A stretch of 59,488 nt of DNA, the filler included, from Sphacelaria rigidula (lineage: Eukaryota): assembly GCA_964200075.2 (NCBI GenBank). It is 10 parts of 10 records of this genome, joined end to end, with 100 filler letters (N's around TTAATTAATTAA, not from the genome) between each part and the next. Parts side by side here need not be neighbours in the genome. Positions count along the whole stretch, not along the records: positions 17,878 to 23,736 come from CAXNAA020023921.1; positions 23,837 to 29,695 come from CAXNAA020023922.1; 8 more parts are not named here. One strand, 5' to 3'. Made by a program: the position numbers and the translations under genes. Positions 5,860 through 55,815 of the stretch are shown here, piece by piece. Every line of letters starts with the position of its first letter. The first letter of the stretch is position 1. The notes below the pieces were generated by a model. It was given only the letters and a program-made list of their open reading frames with translations, made no database searches and was not told the origin of the DNA.

Positions 5860-5959
5860 NNNNNNNNNNNNNNNNNNNNNNNNNNNNNNNNNNNNNNNNN
5901 NNNTTAATTAATTAANNNNNNNNNNNNNNNNNNNNNNNNNNNNNNNNNNNNNNNNNNNN
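5860..5959. other. Artificial contig-joining linker (also 11819-11918, 17778-17877, 23737-23836, 29696-29795, 35655-35754, 41614-41713, 47573-47672, 53531-53630)
   Basis: Identical 100-nt N-TTAATTAATTAA-N spacers with stops in all six frames. Intervening pieces are 5858-5859 bp, as expected for size-sorted contigs. Confidence 0.97.
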
Positions 5960-6812: not shown

Positions 6813-7141
6813 AAGCCCAACCGAACCGATCCAAGCCGAACCGGACCGCACTGAACCAAATCGAGCCGAACCACACTGAACAAAATCGAGTTGAACCTCT
6901 CTGAATCACATCGAGTCGAACCGCACCGAACCAAATCAAGTCGAACCGCACCGAACCAAATCAAGTCGAACCGCACCGAACCAAATCAAGTTGAACTAAA
7001 CAAGAACGAACCGAGCCAAACCCAACCAATCGAGTCGAACCCATTCGAGACGAACGAGCCGAACTGGACCGAATCGAGTCGAACCAAACCAGGACGGACC
7101 GAGCTGAGCCGAACTGCATTGAATTGAACTGAACCGAACCG
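6813..7141. repeat. Degenerate (GAACC)n pentanucleotide satellite
   Basis: GAACC/GAATC/GAGTC units, with a 25-bp higher-order unit CGAACCGCACCGAACCAAATCAAGT repeated near 6918-6991. Confidence 0.9.
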
Positions 7142-7458: not shown

Positions 7459-7462
7459 AGAC

Positions 7463-9261
7463 AATGTGACGGGAAATCGGTCTCTTCCATCGGCCATCTT
7501 CGACGCAACAATCGCTTCCCGCTCCCAGCAAAGGCCCCAAAATACACATCTTACCGCTGCAAACAACCATGCAGCCCGTGCAGAATATCGTGACCACGGA
7601 TTTTCCATCGGCCACTTTGGCCGAAGGAAGCACTTCCCCCTGCCAGCAAAGGGCCCCAAGATACAGATCTTACCGCTGCGAACAACCGCGGCACCCCGCT
7701 CAATGCCGTTGGCACGTTGCTTCCATCCCCCTCTCAACACACCACATATCACATACTGCACCCGTGCTTGCTGTACACAGCTTGCTGTATACAACACCGT
7801 ATGTAGTAAGCAGGAGTGATGTCCACGGGGCATTTACGGTATATCGTCGCGTGTCCTGCTGCGATAGTACTACTACTGCTGTCCACGCTGCTATGTAGAG
7901 TATCATTGAGGAGTGATGTGTGTAAAACGCTTCGTTATACGTAGCTGTATATTTTTAGAGAGGTATATAGACTGCAGTGCTTGCTGTGACAACAGCAGGT
8001 CTCTTTTTGCTACTACCGTTCTCTCTATATGATGGCCCCTTTGTTGAGGATTGTCCACGATAGGTGACCGCCGGAGGTTTATGATCCCTCGTCTCTCCGC
8101 ATACAGCGCCCGGGCGAGGTTGACAGTGAAGTGTACATGAACACCGGAGTGAGGCGGGAGGCGAGGGAGTAGCCTCGCACCTCGCCTTGGAGAAAACGAC
8201 AGCCCAGAAACCAGTAAAGCACATAGAATGTGATGATGGTATTGGGTGCGACACCCTTGACCTCGGAGCTACACATAGGACCGTAACTCCGAGAAGGCTT
8301 GCAGACATCGGTGTAGCCGACAACCCGAGGAATCTTTCTCGTGGCTAGAAGTTTCCTATGGACAGAATCAAGAAGTACGGTGGGTTCTGGACAGAACCAT
8401 AAAGCATGTTGGGTTCGCAGGACTGGGACTGACATTGTTGTCGAGTACGAAATACCTAGAGAATACTATCGGGGTGGCATGGAATGAAAACGTCACCGTT
8501 TGTAGTGGTTTCTGGGCTGTTGTTTTCTCCAAAGCGAGGTGCGAGGCTACTCCCTCGCCTCCCGCCTCACTCCGGTGTTTATGTACACTTCACTGTCAAC
8601 CCCTCCCGGGCGCTGTCTGCGGAGAGACGAGGGCTCATGAACCTCCGGCGGTCACCTATCGTGGACAATCCTCAACAAAGGGGCCATCATATAGAGAGAA
8701 CAGTAGTAGTAAAAAGAGACCTGCTGTTGTCGTCACAGCAAGCACTGCAGTCTATATATTTCTCTAAAAATATACAGCTACGTATAACGAAGCGTTTTAC
8801 ACACATCACTCCTTAATGATACTCTACATAGCAGCGTGTACAGCAGTAGTAGTACTATCGCAGCAGGACACACGACGCTATACCGTAAATGTCCCGTGGA
8901 CATCACTCCTCCTTACTACATACGGTGTTGCGTACAGCAAGCTGTGTACAGCAAGCAGCGGGTGCAGTATGTGAGATGTGGTGTGTTGAGAGGGGGATGG
9001 AATATCCGTGCCAACGGCATTGAGCGGGGTGCCGCGGTTGTTCGCAACGGTAAGATCTGTATCTTGGAGCCCTTTGCTGGGAGGAGGAAGTGATTCCTTC
9101 GGCTAAAGTGGCCGATGGAAGATCCGTGGTCACGATATTCTGCACGGGCTGCATGGTTGTTTGCAGCGGTAAGATCTGTATTTTGGGGTCCTTTGCTGGG
9201 AGCGGGAAGCGATTGTTGCGTCGAAGATGGCCGATGGAAGAGACTGATTTCCCGTCACTTG
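7463..9261. mobile_element. Long inverted repeat / foldback-like element: arms ~7463-8211 and ~8506-9261, spacer ~295 bp
   Basis: Arms are reverse complements along their length. Mirrored ORFs (7955-8323 minus vs 8435-8767 plus) both read GFWAVVFSKARCEATPSPPASLRC. Confidence 0.85.
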
Positions 9262-10187
9262 TGGGTACAATTTCCAAAAACAAGGGTACAATTGGGAGAA
9301 AAGTAGTCACAGAAGGGTACACCGTGGCCGTCTACTGCCGCCGCCGGGTGAAAATGGTCGTTGGCCAATCAGCTGCGGTCATTTCTCCTCCAAACAAAGA
9401 GGGTACCCAGGTTTGTCGCTAGTGTCCCATGGTATACCCTACTGTGACGTTTGCCCTTATAATTATTATAACTATTATTAGTATTAGTATATGTCACGAC
9501 ATAGAAAAGTATACATCGTATGATGTTATGATTACTTTACTGGAATTCGCAGGCCGGACTAACTCCACTGGATGTGGCCCGATTAGCGCAGCAAAAAGAA
9601 ATGGTGTCCCTTCTGGAGGCGTTTCTCAGAGCTGAACCCGCACATGAGGTCATCTCCGAAGGTAGAGCCCAGGTGACATATATAGACACATATATTACGA
9701 TGCTGAGTAATCAAAGAAAGGAAAGCATGAGGCTTAATCGAGTGGTTGGCACCGCAGGAAAAGGACCGGAGTAACCCGGATGTCATCCCCAAGAGTTGCG
9801 ATCTATAAGCGTGTGTGCGCGCGCTTTTTTTAGTTCGAGAGAATGAATTGCCGTCAAAGCAGCGTTTGAGTGATGGGGGGCGTACGTACACCTCGCTACG
9901 GAAAATACATATGTGTATTTCGCATGTGTGTGTGGTGGTAGTTGCATCTTGATCGCGAGCTTCAGTCGTGTAGGGGGCCTGTGGCGATGTGTTTTGGTTT
10001 CAAGGTATTTATGACGGTGACCCAGGTGCGCTTGCACTTTTCATATATATATACATATATTCATGTATATATTGGAGTGAAAACTACGACACAGCAGCGT
10101 CAACTTTAATCTTCGCCCTACTCCTCTCTTTCCTGCTTCGTATATGCTGAGCTGCACGTGTTCTCTTTTCTCCTTGGGTCATCGCAG

Positions 10188-13500: not shown

Positions 13501-13971
13501 CCGCCTTATAACAGACAAAAATAAAAATCTGGAAAAGTGCCTTTTTTCAGCTTCTACGTCGTTTTACGCCCCAACAGAGAGCTAGGCAGAGTTGGACACC
13601 TTGGAATGACTTACTCCACTAGTTGAGACGGTTCCAGGACATTGTCCCGTTTTCCGGTGGCTGCAGTTTTTATTTTGGCCAAACAAGAGTTTTTGTCCAA
13701 GAACGGTAAATAACGGTCAAGTGCAGAGAACAGTGGTGATTTTCCCTAGATTTGACTGCTTTTTACCGTTCTTGGACAAATATTCTTGTTTGGCCAAAAT
13801 AAAAACTGCGGCCACCAGAAAACGGGAATATGTCCTGGAATCGCCTCAACTACTAGAGCAAGTCGTTCCAAGGTGTCGAACTCCGCCTAGCTCTCTTTTG
13901 GGGCGTACAACGACGCAAAAGCTCCAAAAAGGCACTTCTCCAGATTTTTATTTTTGTCTGTTATAAGGAGC
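13501..13971. mobile_element. ~470-bp almost fully palindromic foldback MITE in the PIP kinase intron
   Basis: CCTTATAACAGACAAAAATAAAAATCTGG... mirrored by ...CCAGATTTTTATTTTTGTCTGTTATAAGG. Related copy at 33822-34350. Confidence 0.85.
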
Positions 13972-20727: not shown

Positions 20728-21304
20728 CAGCCGATCATCGAGATTGAGGATGGAGATTTTCATTGAGAATGAGAACCCGTAGGATGAAAATCTTCGTGTC
20801 CAAACCGAATCTTCGAAATATCGTCCCATTCCTTCACCTACTGGTGGCTATTAAAATTTACTACACGCTCTACAAATTTGGATTTCGATTACTGAAATGT
20901 TGGGGTCCTAGATGTAAGAAAAAATTGGGGAAGTTGGGTGATCATATCGGAGCCCTGAAATTCCCCGAAATTGGTTTTTCATTTAGGACCTTAACATTTC
21001 GGTGATCGAAATCCAAACTTGTATGACGTGAAATACTTGTCAATAGCTACCAGCAGGGGAAGGAATGGGACCACATTTCGAAGGTTTGGCGTGGATACGA
21101 ACATTTCAATCCTCCGGGTTCTCATCGTTATCGAAATCCAAACTTGTATGACGTGAAAAACTTGTCAATAGCTACCAGTAGGTGAAGGAATGGGACCACA
21201 TTTCGAAGGTTTGGCGTGGATACGAACATTTCAATCCTCCGGGTTCTCATCCTCAATGTAAAGCTTCATCCTCAATCTCCATCCTCCATTTCGATGATCG
21301 GTTG
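20728..21304. mobile_element. Foldback MITE with CAGYCGATCATCGA termini and an internal ~123-bp tandem duplication
   Basis: Ends CAGCCGATCATCGA / TCGATGATCGGTTG; 21005-21126 is duplicated at ~21128-21250; copy without the duplication at 55373-55815. Confidence 0.85.
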
Positions 21305-23091: not shown

Positions 23092-23936
23092 TAAGACGTC
23101 TGCTAAGTTGAATTAGTTGGTACAGAGTCTGATCTGGTGTACGACGAGTGACGCAGTATTGTTTTGTCTCTGACGAGAAATGGCAACTTGGGGGTGACGA
23201 TCTTCACACCCCACCCCCCCCCCATTTTTTCATTCTCCAACAGTACTCTGCTTCCAGAAGAGACTACTGTGCTTTATTCCTTGTTGGCCAAAGAAGCGCC
23301 CCGGGAACACAATTTTGTGGATCTTTCTTCTTCACTCCGAAAGCAAGCGGGCCTCATACCCACTGTGCATCCTCTGCAATTCTATCTGCTGACAATAGGG
23401 GGTCTCTGTCTCTTGACAGTATCACACCACACGAGCCTTCGAGCCATGCTACAATAGGGAGGGGGGGGGAGAGGGGGGGGGGGTTGATTCCACGAAACAA
23501 AATGCTCATAGATGCGTCAAACGACCTAAAACACTCGCGGTGCGCTTGTATTTGGATAAAAGCGGTGTAAAGCAGTATGAATGCGCGTTATTTATCGGAA
23601 GGAAGCGTGTCCGAACAACTGCTGCATGCTTTCAACGGCGATTAGAGTGGAATTTCGTGGAACAAGACCGCCCAAAATACGTTCATATACCATACTAGAG
23701 CGTTGGAAAGTTGCAGGCTGAGTAGGAGTCGGCAGANNNNNNNNNNNNNNNNNNNNNNNNNNNNNNNNNNNNNNNNNNNNTTAATTAATTAANNNNNNNN
23801 NNNNNNNNNNNNNNNNNNNNNNNNNNNNNNNNNNNNGGATGCGTGGTCAATGGTCAAACGACTGAGGCAAGCAACAAATAGGCACGCCCCCCTTCCCATA
23901 CACACACACTGCGTATGCACTTGCTTCCTGCATCAG

Positions 23937-24129
23937 CCTCGTCTGTGTCCATGTCGTGATCTCGCCGAGACTGAACACAATCGACGACATCAGTAGATTT
24001 TACCGCCGAATGGAACCCGTGGACGGTTCTCTGTCGGCCGACTTGCTGTGGTCCGATCCAAGCGACGACCAAGCAGTTGTACAGAGTGAGGAGACCGGTC
24101 ACAGCGCTGAGGGTAGTGTTATGCTAGAG
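23937..24129 (+). pseudogene. Inverted duplicate of a PPP phosphatase exon (LVCVHVVISPRLNTIDDI...DLLWSDP...)
   Basis: Mirror of 24154-24345 including acceptor and donor; HGG motif altered to HVV. Confidence 0.85.
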
Positions 24130-24153
24130 GTATGTGTACCATTTTGCACACAC

Positions 24154-24345
24154 CTCTAGCATCACACTACCCTCAACCTATGACCGGTCGCCCTACTCTG
24201 CACAACTGTTTGGTCGTCGCTAGGATCGGACCACAGCAAGTCGGCCAACAGAGAATCGTCCACGGGTTCCATTCGGTGGTAAAGTCCCCTGATATCGTCG
24301 AGTGTGTTTAGTCTCGGCAAGATCCCGCCGTGGATACAGAAGAGG
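24154..24345 (-). CDS. PPP phosphatase exon (LFCIHGGILPRLNTLDDIRGLYHRMEPVDDSLLADLLWSDP...), 1 nt shorter than its mirror copy and hitting TGA before the donor
   Basis: FCxHGG and DLLWSDP motifs; CATCAG acceptor in phase 2 matches the upstream exon. Confidence 0.8.
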
Positions 24346-25018
24346 CTGATGCGGGAAGCTAGTGTATACGCAGTGTGTGTATGGGGGGGGGGATGATGAG
24401 ATGCCTTGATTCAGTCGATTCGGGGGCTGATCGGATTGGTTGTCGTACATAACCTGATCGTTTTCCATCAATACAGCCGGGGTCAAACAAGAGAGACGTA
24501 TCTACTTTTTGTCGAGGGAAGCAAGAATGCGAAACATTCGCCGCAGCAAAGTCGGCAAAGGGGGGCAAGGCGGGAGAAGGAAGGAAAAGAAAACACGGAG
24601 GGAAAACGGGGAGAAGAGAGAGAAGGGTAGGGAAATCAAAGGGAACGACAAAATGCCAGGCTAAAATGACGTAAAGTGCCAGGAGATACCATGGTGCCAA
24701 CTTACCAAGCTCCCACGTGGGCAAACTCACACAGACCTAGCTATCCTTCCTTGACTTATCACAAGTAGATTCATTCATGTTCAGACTCTTGATAAGGACC
24801 CCGAGAACAAAAATCTTGAAGGCTAAACGAGAGCTCGAGCTCAAGACTGACGTGACTTTGGACAAAAACATGGGGATCCAACAATTTGTAAAGTACAGCC
24901 ACAGCACGTACAGATGTTCGCGCTCGAAGCTGGTGTAGAAAGGGCTGTCTTTTGTTTTGGCAGCAACTATTATCTTGTTATTTTCCCCCCTCCCTTTCCT
25001 TGCTTTTTTTTTGCTTCT

Positions 25019-25070
25019 TTTCGTTTCGTTTCGTTTCGTTTCGTTTCGTTTCGTTTCGTTTCGTTTCGTT
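25019..25070. repeat. (TTTCG)n microsatellite
   Basis: Direct reading. Confidence 0.95.
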
Positions 25071-25312
25071 CTGTTTTTTTTTTTCCCTCGTCTTTTTTTT
25101 TCCTACTTCCTTCTTCTCCATTTTTTCTGCAGTGCTGTCCTCAGTGTTCCTTTGCTTTACTTACTAAAAACATAGGGATTTTTTTCGCAGGCGAGTCGTC
25201 ATCTTCACCGCAGAGCCACAGTACACACAACTTGCGAGTTCAATGGTCTTCAAACAAGAGTTTTTTTCAGGGGGCAAAGATACGCGAAGGGAAAAGTACC
25301 AGCTTCCCTCGC

Positions 25313-25419
25313 CTCTTTTCCTGGCCATCTTGGGACAGGGTGGCGCACATCGGTAGCGCCGAAAAGCATACGAGAAAGTTCTCGTACGTCTCCAGGCCGT
25401 ACTTAGCGCAACATTCCTT
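25313..25419 (-). CDS. PPP phosphatase exon KECCAKYGLETYENFLVCFSALPMCATLSQDGQEK
   Basis: EC..KY...Y..F...F..LP..A segment that lies between GNHE and HGG; GAGCAG acceptor; AG|GCGAGG donor. Confidence 0.8.
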
Positions 25420-26889
25420 CTGCTCGGATCCAAACAACGACCGAGTGCACGGAATTAAAATGAGCAGGCTTGGTTGCTTGTATATACATCGTTCTCAGAA
25501 GTACAAAAACACGTACATTTGGGGGGGGGGAGACGGGAAAGCGATTGTGTGTCGAATTCAAGAGGCACCGTTCAACTCGTAAGCATACAAAATAACGCGT
25601 AATTACCCAACGAAAATCCATTCATTTGCGCAGCAAAGTAACGCTGAATCGTAGTTTATTTCTTCACTGAAGCCGAATCGCGTGAAACGGTGCCTGCAGC
25701 TGAACGGCTCCTGCGGGAGTCCGCCGCGGGCCCAAGGTACGGGCCGGAGAGATCCAGCGTACTGGCTGCCGGAGTAGCCACTACAGTAGATAGCATATGG
25801 AGTGGCTGCACCAGATCAACCTCTACTTCACCGATATTTTTTCGCAGGCGATTCGTCATTTTCACGGCAGAACCACAGAACGTACAACTTGTTAGCGCAA
25901 CTGTCTTCAAACAAGAGCTTTTTCAGAGAGAAAAAAATATTCGAAACAAAATCACGTGCTTCACTCGCCTCTTCTCCTGGCCCTCTTGAGCAGTAGAGTT
26001 AACCGGCGTTGGGCTACAAGTGTTCATGGTTGATAATTACCTGATTCGAGTGTGTGCGACGAGAATCGGATCTTTGGTAGGGCTGACAGCCCCGTGTGCT
26101 CCTCGCGTGCGCGGAACGCATTTTTGTTGAATTGGTTTGGGGTCTACCAAGGCCGCACGTTGCCTAGTGATAGAGGTAAAGTAAATTTATAGTCGTATTT
26201 GAACTAAAGTAAATTTAATTAATAGTGGTTTTATATTGCTGGAATCATATGTTATTCACATTTTTTTTAAGATATTAGTTTTTATTCGAGAAAACATATA
26301 AATAAATTTATGACACCATCGTCAACATTTTTTAAAATCTAGTTTAGTTGACGGTGGTTCAATTGTTGTTTTGCCAATCAGTTTAGCATTATTTTTTGGT
26401 CTCCAGGCCGTACTTGGCGCAACATCCCTTTTGCTCGAATCCAAATGCTGAGAACCGCAAAAATCTCAATATCAATTGCAAATGTTGCCACACCATACTA
26501 CCAGCTGTTGGTGAAAAACATTACACGTGTGGAGAATCAAGACGTGAAATACAAAGCCGACAGGATGACGACGATACTCAGAAGTAAATCTATTTTACCT
26601 TACCGTACTCGACGTTTCGAGGTTAATAACTGTTTTAAATCGATTCAGCGTACACGTATATACCGTCTTTTATCATTGTTGCGGAAAAGAACTGAGGAAA
26701 GAAACGAGATGGCATGACAACTTTAATAGTAGGGGAAGGGGCCGAATGATTCACCCATGTAATCTATGCACGCAGCGATTGCGTTGAAAAAAACAAGAAA
26801 CACACACACACAAATAGAAAGTGAGCAAAAACGTGGAACTCGGAAAATAAAAATCACCGGATGTCAAAATAGAAAAAACATGAACCCAC

Positions 26890-27057
26890 CTCAAAACCGC
26901 ACGCGGCCGTCTGGTTGGTCGTCTCGTGATTGCCTCGAATAAGGAACATATTCGAAGGGAAGGACACCTTGAGGGACAGAAAGTACAATGCTACTTCGCA
27001 GGAAAACCGTCCCCTGTCCACGTAGTCCCCCAAAAACAGATACTGCCGAGATGGCGG
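26890..27057 (-). CDS. PPP phosphatase exon PPSRQYLFLGDYVDRG...LIRGNHE...CGFE
   Basis: GDYVDRG and RGNHE signatures; canonical AG/GT; 168 nt in phase 0. Confidence 0.92.
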
Positions 27058-27426
27058 CTGCAGAAAATGACGATACGGTTGTGCGAAGCAGAGCAAACAG
27101 CGCAGAAAAAAATGGCTCATCCTTTTTCGCGTAAGGAATATTATCCGTGGTTTTTAGTGGAGGAAGGCGAGAGGTTTTCATCCTCCTTTTCCTGCCTCGA
27201 GATCACATGGGTCAGTAATAGATTATGACTATTTTCGCGACGTGTTAAGGGCTACTGTAGCATGTGTAGTTTTCAAAGTAGACGTCCCGAAATGGCATTC
27301 CGTTCCAATAAAATAATACAGGCAAGAGACACTGAAATATTTCTGTTTCTTTGCTGGCCCGGAAGACTAGAAGATTGGATTCCGCTGCCCACCACGGTGG
27401 CTCGGAAGCCGTACCAAGAAACACAC

Positions 27427-27558
27427 CTGTCCGTAGGTCTTCAAGATATTCAGAAGATCGAAGAACTGCTCGTGCAAGTCTCCGACAACGACCGTTTCGC
27501 TTTTGAGCTCGAGGATGTTGTCCTCGGCGTCGAGCTTCGACGTTGCCTGTCGCAAAAC
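27427..27558 (-). CDS. PPP phosphatase exon VLRQATSKLDAEDNILELKSETVVVGDLHEQFFDLLNILKTYGQ
   Basis: GDxH motif (GDLHEQ instead of GDxHGQ); CAG|GTGTGT donor; inferred acceptor reads CG, not AG. Confidence 0.85.
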
Positions 27559-28343
27559 CGCATCACACCACACACAATTGAGTGAGCGCGACCATACGGG
27601 TGAGAAAACAAACGTGTGCACGCAGCACCCCGGTGTTCACGGTGGTACAGTACATGATGGATGGACCAGCTTGGGCTGGAGTGTAGTGAGTTGGAACTCC
27701 TGCAGTAGTGTTGTACTGGCTTCCACCGCGAAAAGCGTGAAAACGTGAGCGAGCAAAAGTTGAGCCAGAATGTAAACGGGCTGCGGGAGTGCATAGTCAT
27801 CATCCAGTGTTCGATGCCAAAATGGCAGGCATTTGCCGGGGGGGGGGGGATTAGCTGATCCTTGGTACTGTATGTATACTATAAACCCGTCGAAGGGTAG
27901 GGATCAAACGTATTACAGAGTATGTAGATATAGATATAGATGTCTGCATGGCGGAAGACATGCATGGAACTTCGACAGACGTAGAGGGCAGCCTAAATCG
28001 GCATCAGGTGGAGTTCCTCAAGACAGGGAGCAGGTGACATATGCTCAGCCTACGGGGACAATACCTCATCTGCCACAAACTGCCTCTGATAAGTTACCGC
28101 ACAAAACACATATACTGTTATTCGTATGTGCATCGTTAAGAACACTGAGAACAATCACATGGCGTCATGAAACGCACCACCACAGGAAACACTACGTAAT
28201 AGGACGGGTGGATGATCTAGGATCCGGAAAAAGAGTTGATAAACCACGAAATTGAAAAAAACAAAAACGCTGAAGGAACGGCCCGAGGAACCGAAGGAAC
28301 CAAAGGCAAGTTCCAATCGATCCATGCATGCAGTATCGTGTAC

Positions 28344-28526
28344 CTCTCCCGATAGATGCGCCGTCTCTGCCTTTGACAGCACGTCCTGTCGGGTGAACCT
28401 CGTGGCCAGATTGTCGGGGGGGTCAAGGGCGAGATCGCGCAAGGACATGAAACGCTCGTCGGTACCCGCCACCGCAGCCCTCATTCGGACGAAGCCGTTG
28501 AAGACCGCCATGGTCGAGGGAGTCAC
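28344..28526 (-). CDS. Probable upstream exon of the phosphatase, resembling the calcineurin A N-terminal segment
   Basis: GGCAG acceptor, GAG|GTACAC donor, 183 nt in phase 0. TDERF...PP...RFTRQDVL loosely echoes calcineurin T.R....PP..RLT..EVF. Confidence 0.55.
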
Positions 28527-30100
28527 CTGCCATTTGTTGACGAGTTGATGTTGGTGCGCATATCGAGATACAAGGTCTTACGTGAATGACTCAGTAACTT
28601 CAGTCAAGTCCGTGTCAGATATATTTGATTGATGGTCGCACTTCAACTGATTCCCCCAGGGATCCAGCCGTGATCACATGATGGACGTACCTGAGACAAA
28701 ACAAAACCGAAATACTCGCTGAAGAAAAGGGAGGGAAAAACAGAAGAGGTGTACATTAAAACAGAGCAGCAGAGTAGACGATAAAAAGAAGAAAAAAGAA
28801 TACAAATGGCCGGCCTCTATCACATGGCTTTGATGGAAAAGGTCTTGTGCAGAAAGCACGAGCATGGAAATGTACATGGGCCTTCATGAATGGAGTCACA
28901 ACAAAGCTTCGCACACGAAACGACACTGATTGGAAGTTGTTACTTTGGGGAAAAAAAAAACACACACACACACACACACACATAACACGCATGGAAATGT
29001 GCGGTTTACGTGTATAATGTCGGGAGTTTGTTGTTGAATTCGAATTAAAGAACACACAAAAGACGGCCATTGACGAAAAATAATGGCGCCGCATAGCAAA
29101 AACAAATCACAAGGAACACCAAGCCTCATGCGAGACCGCTCCTGATACAAGTACAAGCTGAATCGACCGATAAAATATGTCAGATGATGAATACTTACCT
29201 TGCACTGCAATTCATGTCCAAGTGAAGCAAATGATGAAATCGTTCTATCCAGGCGCACACGCCAGTTTACGTCCGCATGTATTCGAAGACGGACGTCACA
29301 CATATCCCAGAAGAAAAAAAATGATACAAAAACATTCAAGTCTTGTGTCCACCGGCGATCAAAGCCTCGACCCTCAGCTATAAGGGGCTTCGGTTGTACC
29401 ACTTTCAATGTGCAGCGCCCCCGAGTGATTGCACCCCATGCCACCACATGAGCGATACGTGACCGAAAAACGTACGAGTGAAGATTTTGCAAGTGACAAC
29501 TCCAAAGCAGAGCCGAAAATTACGATGTGATGATTCCGTGTGCTGGTCATATGACTTTGAGACCCGACAGCTTTTCGCGGGGAAGGGCGGGAGGGGGGGA
29601 GCGGGGGGGGGGGGGATACGTACTTTCGTGTGTGTGTTGCGGGGGGGAAGGGCTCATGACTTTGCATGCCGTAGTGGTGAGATCATACACAGTGCNNNNN
29701 NNNNNNNNNNNNNNNNNNNNNNNNNNNNNNNNNNNNNNNTTAATTAATTAANNNNNNNNNNNNNNNNNNNNNNNNNNNNNNNNNNNNNNNNNNNNATCTC
29801 ACACGAGAATGCAATCATCCCCTTGTTCAGTTTTTCGAGAGGTTGTTCGGTGCAAAAATAAAGTCAATCGCGGAAACACGCCATACGACGGGGGACAAAG
29901 ACATCAATTGTGCATAACAATAAAAATGCCGAATCATTAACAGAAACCTCCCCGATGATTCACAAAAAAAAAGACAGGTGGAAAACAAAAGACAGGTGAA
30001 AAAAATGAAAGAGACAGATGGGGAAAAAAAAGACAAAAAAAATCATGTGGTCATGTCGGGATACGAAATCGTGACCTGTGCAATTGGAATCGGATATTTA

Positions 30101-30814: not shown

Positions 30815-30952
30815 CACACCCTGGACAAGAGATTACATTGCCAAAAAGTGTACCGCGTACAGTATCGGCCATTGCGTCTATTGCAATAGACAATAGATCT
30901 CATACTGTACGCAGTACATTTTTTTACAATGTAATCTTTTGTCCAGGATGTG
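30815..30952. mobile_element. 138-bp hairpin MITE CACACCCTGGAC...GTCCAGGATGTG
   Basis: ~50-bp TIRs; flanks CATAAACAT / CATAACAT are a near-exact TSD. Confidence 0.85.
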
Positions 30953-33821
30953 CATAACATACAGTAAATAGTTGACAAGCTTTGGAGGTCTACATCAAAA
31001 TCATCCGGTCATGCTTGAACTGTTGTGTCGATCACGAGGGTGAACGCTTGTGCACGGGCAAAAATCACATTCGCTGTGAACGTGCTTTTGCGTGTTAATC
31101 AATATAGCCATACGTACTCTACGTGCTCTCAACAAATTATTGAAAAATGTGTATCCGTATCCAGTTAGGCTCCATTTACCCGATAAATTTGTTCGGTTTC
31201 GGCTGGCAAGTTGTGAATGAAGCTGTTACCTTCCGACAAATAGTATACTCGGGGGATGGAGTCGAAGAGTTCAGCTAAAAACCACAACTTGGGTTGTCTA
31301 CATCTACGACTACCCCGTTCTTGACTATTCAGTGTTATTCCTTTTCAATAATATGGAGGCGATATGCTGATCAGATAAATAATCCGAAACGGCAAAATAC
31401 TTCGAGACGGTCACAACTACCTTAATCGCGGAAGACACGGTCCAGGGTGTTGCAGGGACAGAACCAGCAGTACGGGTGGGCCTTACTGCCGCCAGATATT
31501 TTCTCACTGCCCACGCTTCCTGTTTATCCCCGCGGCATTCCGCAGTGTGCCCCCCCTGGCATTTGCTCGGGATAGGTGTACTGCATACAGTATGGAAAAT
31601 GTGGTCGTGATACAAACGGCGTGCGATACTGTAGTTGTATGCAGTACACCTGTTGCGACAGGTTGTTGTCTGACCGGCGGAAACTGCATACTAGAAGCAA
31701 ATGAAAATCGCGTGAAGTCCGCAAAACGCTGATGGCGTGCCTGTCAGGGAAAGGTCAATATCTTCACGTGGAACCAGGATGTGGCAGAGGATCCGGTTGA
31801 TTGTGGTAAAAGAAAGATACAACTACCTCCCGTATCATTCTCACGCCGCCGTGATGATGACACAGGTACGTCTGGCACTGTAGGATAAGAAACGTTGCCC
31901 GCTGCCGGTGCAGGTTCGCAGTGCTCCTCGGCTGCACACTCTCCTCTTTGGCTACTCTGCGTGGCCCCATCTTGCTCGACACGGCGCCTGAACCCCAACG
32001 GCATCAACCTCTAACATATAGAGAACCTTCACTGATAAGCATTTCTCGTGTTGGTGTCAGCCTCGACCGACAGGGGGCCGATTTAGACAACAAGGCTGGC
32101 AAGATATGCCCCTCGCTCTGCACGGGTTTGATAGCATTGCCCTCTAGAACTGTCATTAGAAAGTGTTCTTCTTTCCGGAACAGGTTCAGCATCGTGCAAA
32201 GTCATTGTTTCAGGTCACGCTGCGCTTAAAACGCATTGGGTCGCCGCAACTGCCGCGCCGACACATAGCTTTGGCCTCAATCCACACACACATCAACTTT
32301 CAGCTTCATCAGACGCCAGGTGTGCTGTGTTGGGGCGCCAATTCTCCGAAAACACCGCCTCCATATTATTGAAAAGAAATAACACTGTGTTGTTGTTGGC
32401 TACCTCCTTTCTAAGTGCCCGCTCTATGTCAAATATATTTCAGTTGTTGACGGGATAATGTTGCGTCTGGGGTGATGGGTGACGCGGATGGGGGATACGC
32501 TCTCAGATCAACTGAAAACACTTGGTGCGATTGACACACTTGTTATCCCGACAAAAACCGCTGTTGGGTAAAGGGGTCTTGCTAAGGGCTCATTGTTATC
32601 GACGTGGTTTTTTTTCCTGATTATCTCCGAAATTTCCGGGTAAAATTTCCGGGTAAAATTTCGGACTCTGGGCTCGGTTATCTCCGAAAGTAAAGCGGCT
32701 TGATTCTTTTTCCGAAGCTTCGCGTTTGGAGAAGTCCGAACGATTCGGACCGCAACGCAGGACTTCGGAGAGTTTCTCCATGTGTGTACGCCCTGGCGCT
32801 CGCTATCGATCGAGATTCATCAGGAAGCTTGCTGGTGACAACCGGGGCCATGTCGGCGAGTAGAAGGAGCCGTGGTCCGGCGGGAATAGGATCTTCAGGC
32901 CGGCGACGGCGAGCCTATGATGAGATCAGCACTGCGTCGATAATGAGAGGTCTAACGGCAACAGCAGAACTCGATTAGAACGCCACCCTCTGGGCCGTTT
33001 GGAATTTTCCGAAATTTCAGGACTTCTCTGTTCCAAAAACTCAAAAAAAAAATGGGCTCGACGGGGCGATTTTTCACAGTTTTTCCGAGTTTTTTCCTGA
33101 CAAACAATATCCGCGTTACGACTTCTCCCAAAAACGTGTTGCTGAACAAAATATACGAACCTAGATTTTCGGAGACACCTGGTAGTCAGTCTCCGAGTGA
33201 TCTATTGCCTCACCTGATGGAAAAAAAAAAAACTGCCGTCATATTTTCGCGGAAAATATATATTTTTCTCCCGCTCAATTTGAGGATTTCGGAGGGGAAA
33301 TTAGACCCGTGAATAATACCCCAAAGGAGTACGGCATCTGTGGTTGCGTCGTGCTCGCGAAATTTGAATAGTACAGCGATATGCGAAACAAATGACACGC
33401 ATCTGAGTAGAAAGGTGATGAACCAAAAGTCAGCGTCCGGAGAAATTGTCTGGTTACCTCAGATCTAGGCCAAAAACATTGCCGAACGGGCTAGGGTCCG
33501 AAAAATTAATCCACGAGAGAAAATCGAGTGAAGACGGGCTGAAATCTCGTATTTGTACAAATACAGATTGGTTGCCACACAAGACGGTCTAACTGGACGA
33601 GAAATTGGTGCAACGACAGGATGAGAAACCTGTGAGTGCCAGTAGACAGCTTTTGATCGGAGATTTCGTGCAACTTGTTTCCCCGTAGTTGTTGTTGTTG
33701 CTGTTGCTGCCTTCACATTGAAAAAAACTGTTCCGATATCTGCGCAGTACTCCGTACTGGGCATCTGATGCGGACGCCTTCCGTGGTCACAGCTTAACTA
33801 CCCAAAAAGAGACGTGAGCCC

Positions 33822-34350
33822 GCTCCTTGTGGCAGACAAGAATAAAAATCTAGCATAGTGTATTTTTGGAGTTTGTACATCGTTTTTCGCCCTGAAAGAG
33901 AGCTACGCGGATCGTGACACCTTGGGATGCCTTGCTGTACTCGTTGAAACTGTTCCAGCACACCTGTGCGTTCCTTCCGGTGGACGCAGTTTTTTTCTTG
34001 CCGAACCTTGCATTTTTCTCGGAGACCGTTCATTTTCCTCGGAGACTGGTCAAGTCCAGAAATTTTTCAGAGATTTGTCTGGACTCGACCGGTCTCCAAG
34101 AAAATGAGCAGTCTCTGAGGAAAACGAGCGGTCTCTGAGGAAGATGAGCGGTCTCCGAGAAAAATGCGAGTTTGAGCAAGAAAAACTGCGGCCATCGGAG
34201 AAGGCACAGGTGTGCTGTACCCGTCTCGACGGGTACAGCAAGGCATTCCGAGGTGTCGAAAACGGCCTAGCTCTCTCTTAAAGCGTAAAACGACGTCGAA
34301 GCTCCAAAAAGGCACTTCGCCAGATTTTTATTTTGTGTGCCATAAGGAGC
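33822..34350. mobile_element. Foldback MITE related to 13501-13971
   Basis: GCTCCTTGTGGCA...TGCCATAAGGAGC; shared AAGCTCCAAAAAGGCACTTC.CCAGATTTTTATTTT; internal ~20-bp repeats GAGCGGTCTCYGAG. Confidence 0.85.
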
Positions 34351-35589
34351 GACCTGAGGGGGAAAAAATAGTAGAACCCAGAAAAATTCACACAAACACG
34401 ATACAGAATTACGAGTGAATACTGCTAACCTCATGAGTACCGGTGCCGCAGGCGGCCATTCGGATTACTGGAGGCAGAGCCCAATAACGCTCCCACTCGG
34501 CACGCGACGCCAGACAGAGTTGGAGCCAAACTCAGAAGCCAAAGATTACCAACCATGGGCATAAGAATCGCATGGTTATATACTTGTACCTCTCTACACA
34601 AGCAATATATGAGAAACCATTGTGACTAGTTTCCGTGTGTCAACAACTTGTGGATGAACACGTTACGTAAATACCGCAGTTGGCCGTACTGCAGACAAGT
34701 ATTGTGTAAACGTTTTTATTTGCAACTAGTTTGCCTCTGGACAACCTTCGTTCGAAAATTCGCGCAACCTTGTTGCATGTGGACAACTCTCGGCGGACGT
34801 TTCCCACAACCCGCTATCTGTAATCAATAACCGAATGGGGAATCTGCGCATATGGCCATGCACTGGTGACTACAACAACAGCTCAAACGACAATACCGTC
34901 TTCCCTAGGCCCTGGCCGATCAGGCACGAAGGCGTGCCTCAGGCAAATGTGCCAGGCCCGTCGCAGGCGAACACATGGGGGTCAGGCAAAAACTCAGGCA
35001 TGCCTGACACCAATTTTCATGCCTGACGGTTTCAATCCATGCCTGAGATGTCTTAGTTAATAAGACAGGATGCCTTAGACTTGCCCGAGAGAATCTCCCC
35101 GGTATCCCGAATAATTGGAGTTGGCGTCGTCATAGGCGTGCCTTACTCCCATTCAGTTCTGTAGTATAAGTGGTTGACTGGCGCAAACAAGGCATCTCAA
35201 GGATCAAACACCGTCTCAGGCAACCCCTTTCCAAAAAAGGGCCCCGCAGGCATAAAGTAAGGCACACGTGATCTACGAGGGCCTAGTCTTCCGCTTGTCC
35301 CAACCCTCCCCCCAAAAATATAAAATAAAACGCACCACCCACGTCCAGTAAGTCCAGCTGCCCCTTGGCCAAGAAAACGCAAAACACTCAAAAGCACATC
35401 CCAACTCATTCTAACCATATTATGCAAATACCAAACACCCATCCAATATTATATATATATATATATATATTCTGTACTGCTCGCCGCGACTACATGCACG
35501 AATGACTCTGACGCGCCTCAAATGCTCGACGTCGACCTCTTCAATGCCTGATACAGTCTCTCCGTCAAATAACAAGTATCTGGGATCCC

Positions 35590-50689: not shown

Positions 50690-51192
50690 GTACATGTTTT
50701 CCAATTTTCATCCATGCAGCATGAATCATAAGCTCATGTTCCCCACCTTCTATTCGTTCGCTATGAATCATCGATATACGTTTCTCCCCTTCGATTCATG
50801 CAGCATGAATCACAGGCTCATGTTCGTCAACTTTCTTTCATACGAGATGAATCAAGCGTACATGTTTCCCATTTTTCATCCATGCAGCATGAATCATGGG
50901 TACACGTTCGCCGACTTTCTCTCATACGAGATAAATCAAGCGTACATGTTTCCCATTTTTCATCCATGCAGCATGAATCATGGGTACACGTTCGCCAACT
51001 TTCTCTCATACGAGATAAATCAAGTGTACATGTTTCCCATTTTTCATTCATGCAGCATGAATCATACGTACATGTTCTGCGCCTTCCATTCATTTGAGAT
51101 GAACCGAGTGTACATGTTTCCCACTTTTCATTCATGCGGCGTGAAACGACGTACATGTTCGCCACCTTCTGTTCATACGGCATATACCATGA
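50690..51192. repeat. 42-bp tandem array, ~12 units with an 84-bp dimer higher order
   Basis: Units such as GTACATGTTTCCCATTTTTCATCCATGCAGCATGAATCATGG alternating with GTACACGTTCGCCRACTTTCTCTCATACGAGATAAATCAAGY. Confidence 0.92.
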
Positions 51193-55372: not shown

Positions 55373-55815
55373 ACAGTCGATCATCGAAATTGAAGGTGGC
55401 GCTTGACATCGAGGATGAGAACCCGGAAGATTCAAGTATTCGTATCCGCACCCAATCTTCGAAATATGATCCCGCCCCTTCATCTACTAGTAGCTGTTTG
55501 CAGGTACTACACGTCATACAAATTTGGATTCCGATAACGGAAACGTTGGGGTCCTAGGTGAAAAACCAATTTCGAGGAATTCCGACACTTCGATTGGATC
55601 CCTTGAATTCCCTAGAGTTGGTTTTTCGTCTAGAACGCCAACTTTTCGGTTATCGAAATCCAAATTTGTAGGGCGTGTAGCAGTTGTCGATAGCTACCAG
55701 TAGGTGAAGGGATTGAACTATATTTCGACGGTTTGGTGTGGATACAAAGATTTGTAATCCTCCGTGTTCTCACCCTCAATGAAAAGCTTCATCCTCAATT
55801 TCGATGATCGGCTGT
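55373..55815. mobile_element. Foldback MITE, same family as 20728-21304
   Basis: ACAGTCGATCATCGAAATTGA ... TCAATTTCGATGATCGGCTGT. Confidence 0.85.

Follow-up and report, generated by a model that had tools for sequence, protein, structure and literature searches.

Does a hairpin formed by two inverted copies of a phosphatase exon in a brown alga serve as a young small-RNA locus directed against a related gene, or is it what a rearrangement has left behind in a dying gene copy? The inverted-duplication model for the origin of plant small-RNA loci reportedly goes back to Allen et al. in 2004, and a preliminary description of the locus studied here regarded it as a candidate hairpin RNA (hpRNA) or proto-miRNA locus. 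The locus belongs to Sphacelaria rigidula and is found at the beginning of contig C23922, within a window of 59,488 nucleotides that consists of ten unrelated, size-sorted contigs of ~5.86 kb joined by linkers of 100 N. These linkers (5860-5959 and eight more, one each ~5959 bases) carry a six-frame stop linker in the N runs, and features on different segments are not neighbours. Searches covered the whole assembly (244 Mb in 27,214 contigs), and four public sequencing runs were compared as contigs aligned to C23922, the comparison drawing on 40 of the 252 rows of differences, 12 of the 21 rows of gaps and 15 of the 50 joints.

Structure of the hairpin

The inverted duplication proposed in the preliminary description is confirmed at 23888-24138 and 24145-24392, with arms of 251 and 248 nt in which 217 of 251 aligned columns are identical (86%), and so is the loop of about six nucleotides, CCATTT at 24139-24144. 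The left arm (23888..24138, plus strand) comprises 49 nt of the upstream intron, an acceptor AG at 23935-23936, a pseudo-exon at 23937-24129 and the first 9 nt of the downstream intron. The right arm (24145..24392, minus strand) contains an acceptor at 24347-24346, an exon at 24345-24154, the final one visible in the minus-strand copy of the gene, and a donor at 24153-24152, so that acceptors and GT donors are present in both arms. The left pseudo-exon has the 193 nt of the paralogous exon and remains in frame, carrying HVV, while the right exon is 192 nt long and keeps HGG, having a 1-nt deletion followed a few codons later by a TGA within the exon. The lesions are thus as they had been described; the suggestion of complementary damage has to be given up, because the right arm carries six further private amino-acid-changing substitutions, leaving two decaying arms and no pattern.

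On each of the two strands, 23888-24392 folds with an energy of -436 to -448 kcal/mol (z ~-36 to -38; none of 100 shuffles equally stable), and when 23837-24700 is folded on the minus strand, the right exon has its acceptor as well as its donor paired. The hairpin is single-copy in the assembly: with the left arm as a query, the whole assembly returns three matches, i.e. both arms and contig C6752, which carries the paralogue. A pattern spanning the loop had no exact match in a metagenome collection.

The hairpin is only 51 nt away from the contig end, which lies within a short, very-high-copy repeat (23837..23886, plus strand; families D9/D15/D17) reaching an X1 depth of ~1.6 million in the first bin, and the C-rich end of this repeat runs into the outer C-run of the left arm. 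C-tailed short repeats of this kind are extremely abundant and often found at contig ends (23837-23886, 41563-41613, 45248-45337, 45827-45916, 48581-48670; L003:1275-1350); C6752 has two copies just 5' of the matching exon and one inverted copy 3' of it. On the other side of the hairpin, a 124-bp repeat with many copies at 93-97% identity is inserted at 24675-24798 in the intron adjoining the right arm.

The gene copy carrying the hairpin

The right arm is the fifth exon of a minus-strand calcineurin-like (PP2B-type) gene copy with the exon order 28526-28344, 27546-27427, 27057-26890, 25419-25313 and 24345-24154. The most upstream exon on the contig (28344..28526) has one codon more than the paralogue, the second (27427..27546) reads GDLHE in place of GDLHG, the third (26890..27057) has intact GDYVDRG and GNHE motifs, and the fourth (25313..25419, 107 nt), which precedes the right arm, ends in a GC donor where the paralogue has GT. 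Between the third and the fourth exon we found a dead tandem copy of the latter together with the start of its intron (25837..26445, minus strand; 26445-26399 and 25988-25837), its halves being split by a repeat insertion, from which it follows that the locus has been rearranged more than once. The GC donor (25312-25311) also occurs in this dead tandem copy and may belong to a working GC-AG intron. With GDLHE in the second exon, the deletion and stop in the right arm and HVV in the left arm, catalytic motifs and reading frame are not those of a functional calcineurin-like phosphatase, and the window copy cannot make a phosphatase.

An intact paralogue, as the preliminary description had expected, is present in the assembly on contig C6752 and is 69-76% identical to the window copy. 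Its protein has relatives in Hapterophycus, Scytosiphon, Ectocarpus (where it is named calcineurin catalytic subunit) and Laminaria, and its best 25 matches among solved structures are PP2B/calcineurin A. The window copy shares this kinship with the calcineurin A catalytic subunit and differs from it by the lesions in its catalytic motifs and in that C-terminal regulatory regions were not seen. Searches with two homologue tails found 3' exons for neither the window copy nor C6752, matching two other phosphatase loci instead, a blank that does not amount to absence; the gene may be truncated at the hairpin. A protein search with the translated left arm gave a single match, an allele-like piece of the paralogous exon and not a sister copy.

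Divergence of the arms

Compared with each other over 55 codons, the arms show 16 nonsynonymous and six synonymous differences (dN/dS 0.78), a ratio compatible with neutrality (p=0.62) and incompatible with a dN/dS of 0.07-0.15 (p 6e-8 and 2e-4). Two upstream exons compared with C6752 have dN/dS values of 0.05 and 0.07, and the exon at 27549 has a pN of 0.094 and a pS of 0.513. Polarised against the paralogue, 11 private changes fall to the left arm and eight to the right arm, with three unpolarised. The upstream exons were also set against an unassembled sister version described below: among seven listed differences in exon 27546-27427 the window copy is derived at four nonsynonymous and one synonymous site and the sister at two synonymous sites, and exon 28526-28344 gives a mixed result, the window copy having one nonsynonymous change, the sister two nonsynonymous and one synonymous, with one change unpolarised. 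With low power throughout, these counts suggest that the arms drift neutrally and reject coding constraint, and amino-acid changes have built up freely in the two arms and in one or more of the upstream exons.

Constraint on the stem, in the form of strand-biased wobble or a conserved duplex, was not found either, at the low power that 22 transitions afford. G-U wobbles are distributed 12:10 or 13:9 between the strands (12 of 22 gives p=0.83), the longest perfect stem run of 24 bp is matched by 67% of 10,000 shuffles, no stem segment is locally better paired than by chance, and mismatch rates are alike in the intron part (7/49) and the exon part (25/193). This pairing without a signature of selection speaks against a functional hpRNA. 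Long hpRNAs, however, need neither a wobble bias nor a conserved duplex, and 22 substitutions give little power.

A sister copy in the sequencing runs

Contigs of run X1 cover 27278-27568 in two versions, one that is identical to the assembly, at a depth of 65.7, and another with 19 differences, at a depth of 57.3. X1 contigs from other loci in the joint table mostly have depths of 60-72, so both versions look single-copy, and at least one ~93% identical copy, which may be a paralogue or a very divergent allele, therefore exists outside the assembly. This copy keeps the G of GDLHG, as do the only versions aligned from runs X3 and X4, and since G is intact at 27470 in X3 and X4, the assembled strain has undergone some of the decay on its own, which counts against regarding the locus as a scar. 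The arm exon, too, has a third version in X1 (~24001-24120, depth 46.2) with at least eight differences from the left arm. It has the paralogue state at 24035, 24081 and 24088, all of them sites where the left arm alone is derived, and is apparently what one would expect of an intact sister exon; X3 and X4 did not show it. Distances among the three exon versions are about equal (7-11% over 119 nt), so the inversion would date to near the split from the sister copy.

The contigs also bear on the reality of the hairpin. X3, which stems from another study, and X4, from another sample, both carry the letters of the left arm at 24054-24085, which shows that the assembler did not create this arm as a mirror, and the earlier judgement that the hairpin is not a simple assembly mirror is borne out, the hairpin being single-copy as well. 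A chimera joining arms from different copies or haplotypes that are not adjacent in the genome is very improbable: the arms differ by 14% with private changes on each, a 509-nt X1 contig matches 24226-24733 without a substitution, and the loop is native intron and offers no mirror point. What a chimera would account for is that none of the listed contigs bridges the loop, that sister copies have collapsed out of the assembly, and that at 24035 both X1 contigs have T where the assembly has C. It could also claim a same-strand joint of 24508 to 23887, seen in X1 and X4, which connects the unique intron with the start of the left arm and lacks the high-copy repeat; this joint would also follow from a tandem unit or small inversion in the sister copy. 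Over 27389-28433, X3 and X4 are mosaics of the two X1 versions, which suggests conversion or recombination between copies or alleles.

Depth raises a further alternative, according to which the 505 bp show just the middle of a palindrome or inverted triplication that is larger and has been collapsed, with two tail-to-tail truncated copies, an intact third one and the contig-start repeat inserted in the intron of the left copy. X1 depth amounts to 127-162 over 26973-28540 outside one repeat bin, as against ~65 for single-copy contigs, and X1 contigs of depth 105.8 (27598-27637) and 93 (24446) might each represent two collapsed copies; the end of the contig in a repeat so close to the arm, the three versions of the arm exon and a loop orientation that fits the entire minus-strand copy being the product of a fold-back point the same way. 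Summed contig depth is not a copy number, though, 24817-25208 has a depth of about one copy in X1, X3 and X4, and neither 24393-24660, which is unique in the assembly, nor 26860-27640, apart from the paralogue, has a further assembled copy. We therefore consider the larger palindrome unlikely.

Probable origin by a fold-back event

The locus is probably the scar of a rearrangement that struck a young duplicate of a calcineurin-like gene, now in decay. What is duplicated in inverted orientation is an exon with short intron flanks, and the junction lies 9 and 15 nt into the downstream intron. The left donor together with the loop matches the start of the C6752 intron at 12 of 15 positions and nothing past that; the loop (24139..24144) is hence native intron in plus orientation, the left side represents the native exon-intron junction, and the turn falls at intron positions +9/+15. 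The arms are accordingly separated by a short unduplicated native spacer, as looked for in events of the fold-back or template-switch type. In yeast, fold-back inversions with small loops are closed by secondary, mostly homology-driven rearrangements, according to the accessible part of PMC7467729. The small native loop, the inverted copy starting from it and the second junction at a repeat liken the window locus to the duplications treated in that part of the work; in contrast to these, the window case is old (14% arm divergence), its visible arm measures just 250 bp, and its mechanism is read from one junction.

A fold-back of DNA or an inter-strand template switch just beyond the donor may have copied the strand backwards, the event being closed by a second junction at the C-run common to the left arm and the high-copy repeat, presumably at about the time at which the window copy split from its intact sister. 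Should the copy still be transcribed, the exon would have both of its splice sites locked inside the stem, from which a few 21-nt RNAs might be released as a by-product without selective maintenance. Some observations sit less easily with a scar: the stem is still 86% paired, the left-arm letters have been kept in two other samples, one of them from another study, and, with 3' exons found for neither copy, the truncation at the hairpin is presumed.

A possible role in silencing

The geometry fits the earlier proposal that the hairpin lies within a read-through transcript of the minus-strand gene, as judged from the exon order and the very stable stem. In a functional version of this proposal, the promoter of the duplicate would transcribe the hairpin, Dicer would produce 21-nt RNAs, and guides from the left arm would repress the ~93% sister, probably at translation; we regard such a working gene-derived hpRNA as a tentative and rather unlikely reading. 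That a single fold-back turned the duplicate into a trans-silencer of its ~93% sister, so that a gene-derived hairpin small-RNA locus is seen here at its birth, is likewise doubtful. The inverted duplication of coding sequence that forms a long stem is found, and the resemblance to the precursor of a gene-derived hpRNA, judged from the predicted fold, is one of shape only.

The assembled paralogue C6752 was rejected as the main target, as none of 173 left-arm 21-mers matches it perfectly, 15 of 173 match with at most three mismatches, and the longest identical run that it shares with either arm is 14 bases. Silencing of an intact paralogue, as proposed before, therefore stands only in a changed form, via the unassembled ~93% copy of X1: of 100 left-arm 21-mers compared with the third exon version, 26 are perfect matches and 90 have at most three mismatches, if the eight listed differences are complete, and the match may be overstated as it draws on 40 of 252 difference rows. 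This copy is, judging by partial contigs, a plausible target, and what sustains the reading is the apparent existence of a close, intact sister. The guide strand of a minus-strand transcript would be the left, antisense arm. The stem lies downstream of four exons on the same strand, and one Argonaute (Piwi-domain) locus was found in the genome, both in favour of an hpRNA. An RNase III profile had no match in an exon-by-exon search of the incomplete genome, and the seven Rfam matches all stay well under the gathering scores, reflecting a generic hairpin and no known miRNA family. Run X8, which we guess to be RNA, covers nine of 30 bins, mostly repeats, with one 163-nt intronic piece and a depth of ~1 in the right-arm bin, and was left out of the evidence.

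The preliminary description had argued from plants, whereas the host is a brown alga. In the available portions of Tarver et al. (PMC4513859) and Cock et al. (PMC5381526), the pre-miRNAs of Ectocarpus and Saccharina are without similarity to coding genes and are traced to genomic hairpins, neither survey reporting miRNA loci from duplicated coding genes, which weighs against an hpRNA here. These surveys, in the same portions, filtered out extended hairpins and terminal loops <8 nt, and as of PMC5381526 there was no confirmed target of a brown algal small RNA. The loci they describe resemble ours as long fold-backs within a gene, possibly on the strand of the host transcript, and differ in averaging 170-183 nt and being mostly intronic, as opposed to a 505-nt, exon-derived hairpin. 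The accessible sections of PMC12867755 report, for Ectocarpus, a single AGO whose bound 21-nt RNAs derive from inverted repeats, which favours an hpRNA, and little change in target mRNA levels; they also count 295 additional putative loci arising from inverted repeats, in datasets that could include gene-derived cases. Translational repression seems to be the main mode of action of this AGO, for which reason degradome cleavage would be a weak test. Small RNAs tied to intact transposons are described in the part of PMC12477816 available to us. In the literature searched, with most subscription papers outside its coverage, no small-RNA locus based on a gene-derived hairpin was found to be reported for brown algae.

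Precedents exist elsewhere. The Antirrhinum SULF and Mimulus YUP loci (PMC12371187, available part) exemplify inverted duplication in plants, and the likeness to such loci consists in a partial inverted copy of a coding gene, a long imperfect stem and a related gene as a possible target. The window locus differs in its stramenopile host and in that the hairpin sits inside a decaying copy, includes both splice sites and is known from its sequence alone. Drosophila hpRNA loci producing siRNAs that suppress Dox-family genes (10.1101/2021.08.05.454923, accessible part) likewise pair a gene-derived long hairpin with a recently duplicated family; unlike the window hairpin they are known to be expressed, processed and under conflict-driven selection. 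If AGO-loaded RNAs came from the arms, the locus would be a counter-example to the published derivation of brown algal miRNA loci from generic hairpins rather than duplicated genes, the inverted-gene route would have arisen independently in stramenopiles, and a brown algal small RNA would, unusually, come with its own predictable target; the interest would lie mainly in the lineage. If silent, the hairpin is an ordinary, well-preserved rearrangement scar.

Hairpins and repeats in the genome

To what extent the hairpin stands out was judged from 60 stretches chosen by contig number (581,792 bases), in which near-adjacent inverted repeats with arms of at least 100 nt were counted. The sample contains 33 of them, some overlapping, i.e. 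~57 long hairpins per Mb, a frequency that by itself tempers the case for an hpRNA. Other copies inside the sample exist for 29 of the 33, and two of the other four, searched genome-wide, belong to multi-copy families; none of the 33 was recognised as exon-derived, translation covering four. This genome abounds in long hairpins, nearly all of them members of repeat families, among which a single-copy, exon-derived one is unusual.

The abundance of palindromic families of the same size, with arms of 210-265 nt, invites the idea of an exon captured by, or built like, a fully palindromic repeat element of ~400-500 bp of the MITE or fold-back type. We consider this highly unlikely, as 641 kb hold no similar place, genome-wide matches are confined to the hairpin's own arms and the paralogue, the hairpin ends in native intron on both sides, where foreign terminal repeats were not seen, and the right arm stands in gene order with the upstream exons. 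Membership in a MITE-like family is largely refuted, multiple dispersed copies not having been found.

End-to-end palindromic elements of 140-550 bp occur in the window at 13504-13968, 33821-34351, 20737-21282, 55373-55815 and 30815-30952, with further ones at L061:5890-6378 and L074:4466-4846. One such family has 357 candidates genome-wide, making these families a large possible source of double-stranded RNA. A fold-back-like inverted repeat at 7461-9262 has ~760-nt arms that are 95% identical, a 286-nt spacer and internal repeats of ~120 nt, and tandem arrays are present at 50690-51145 and 6813-7140 with periods of 42/84 nt and 25 nt.
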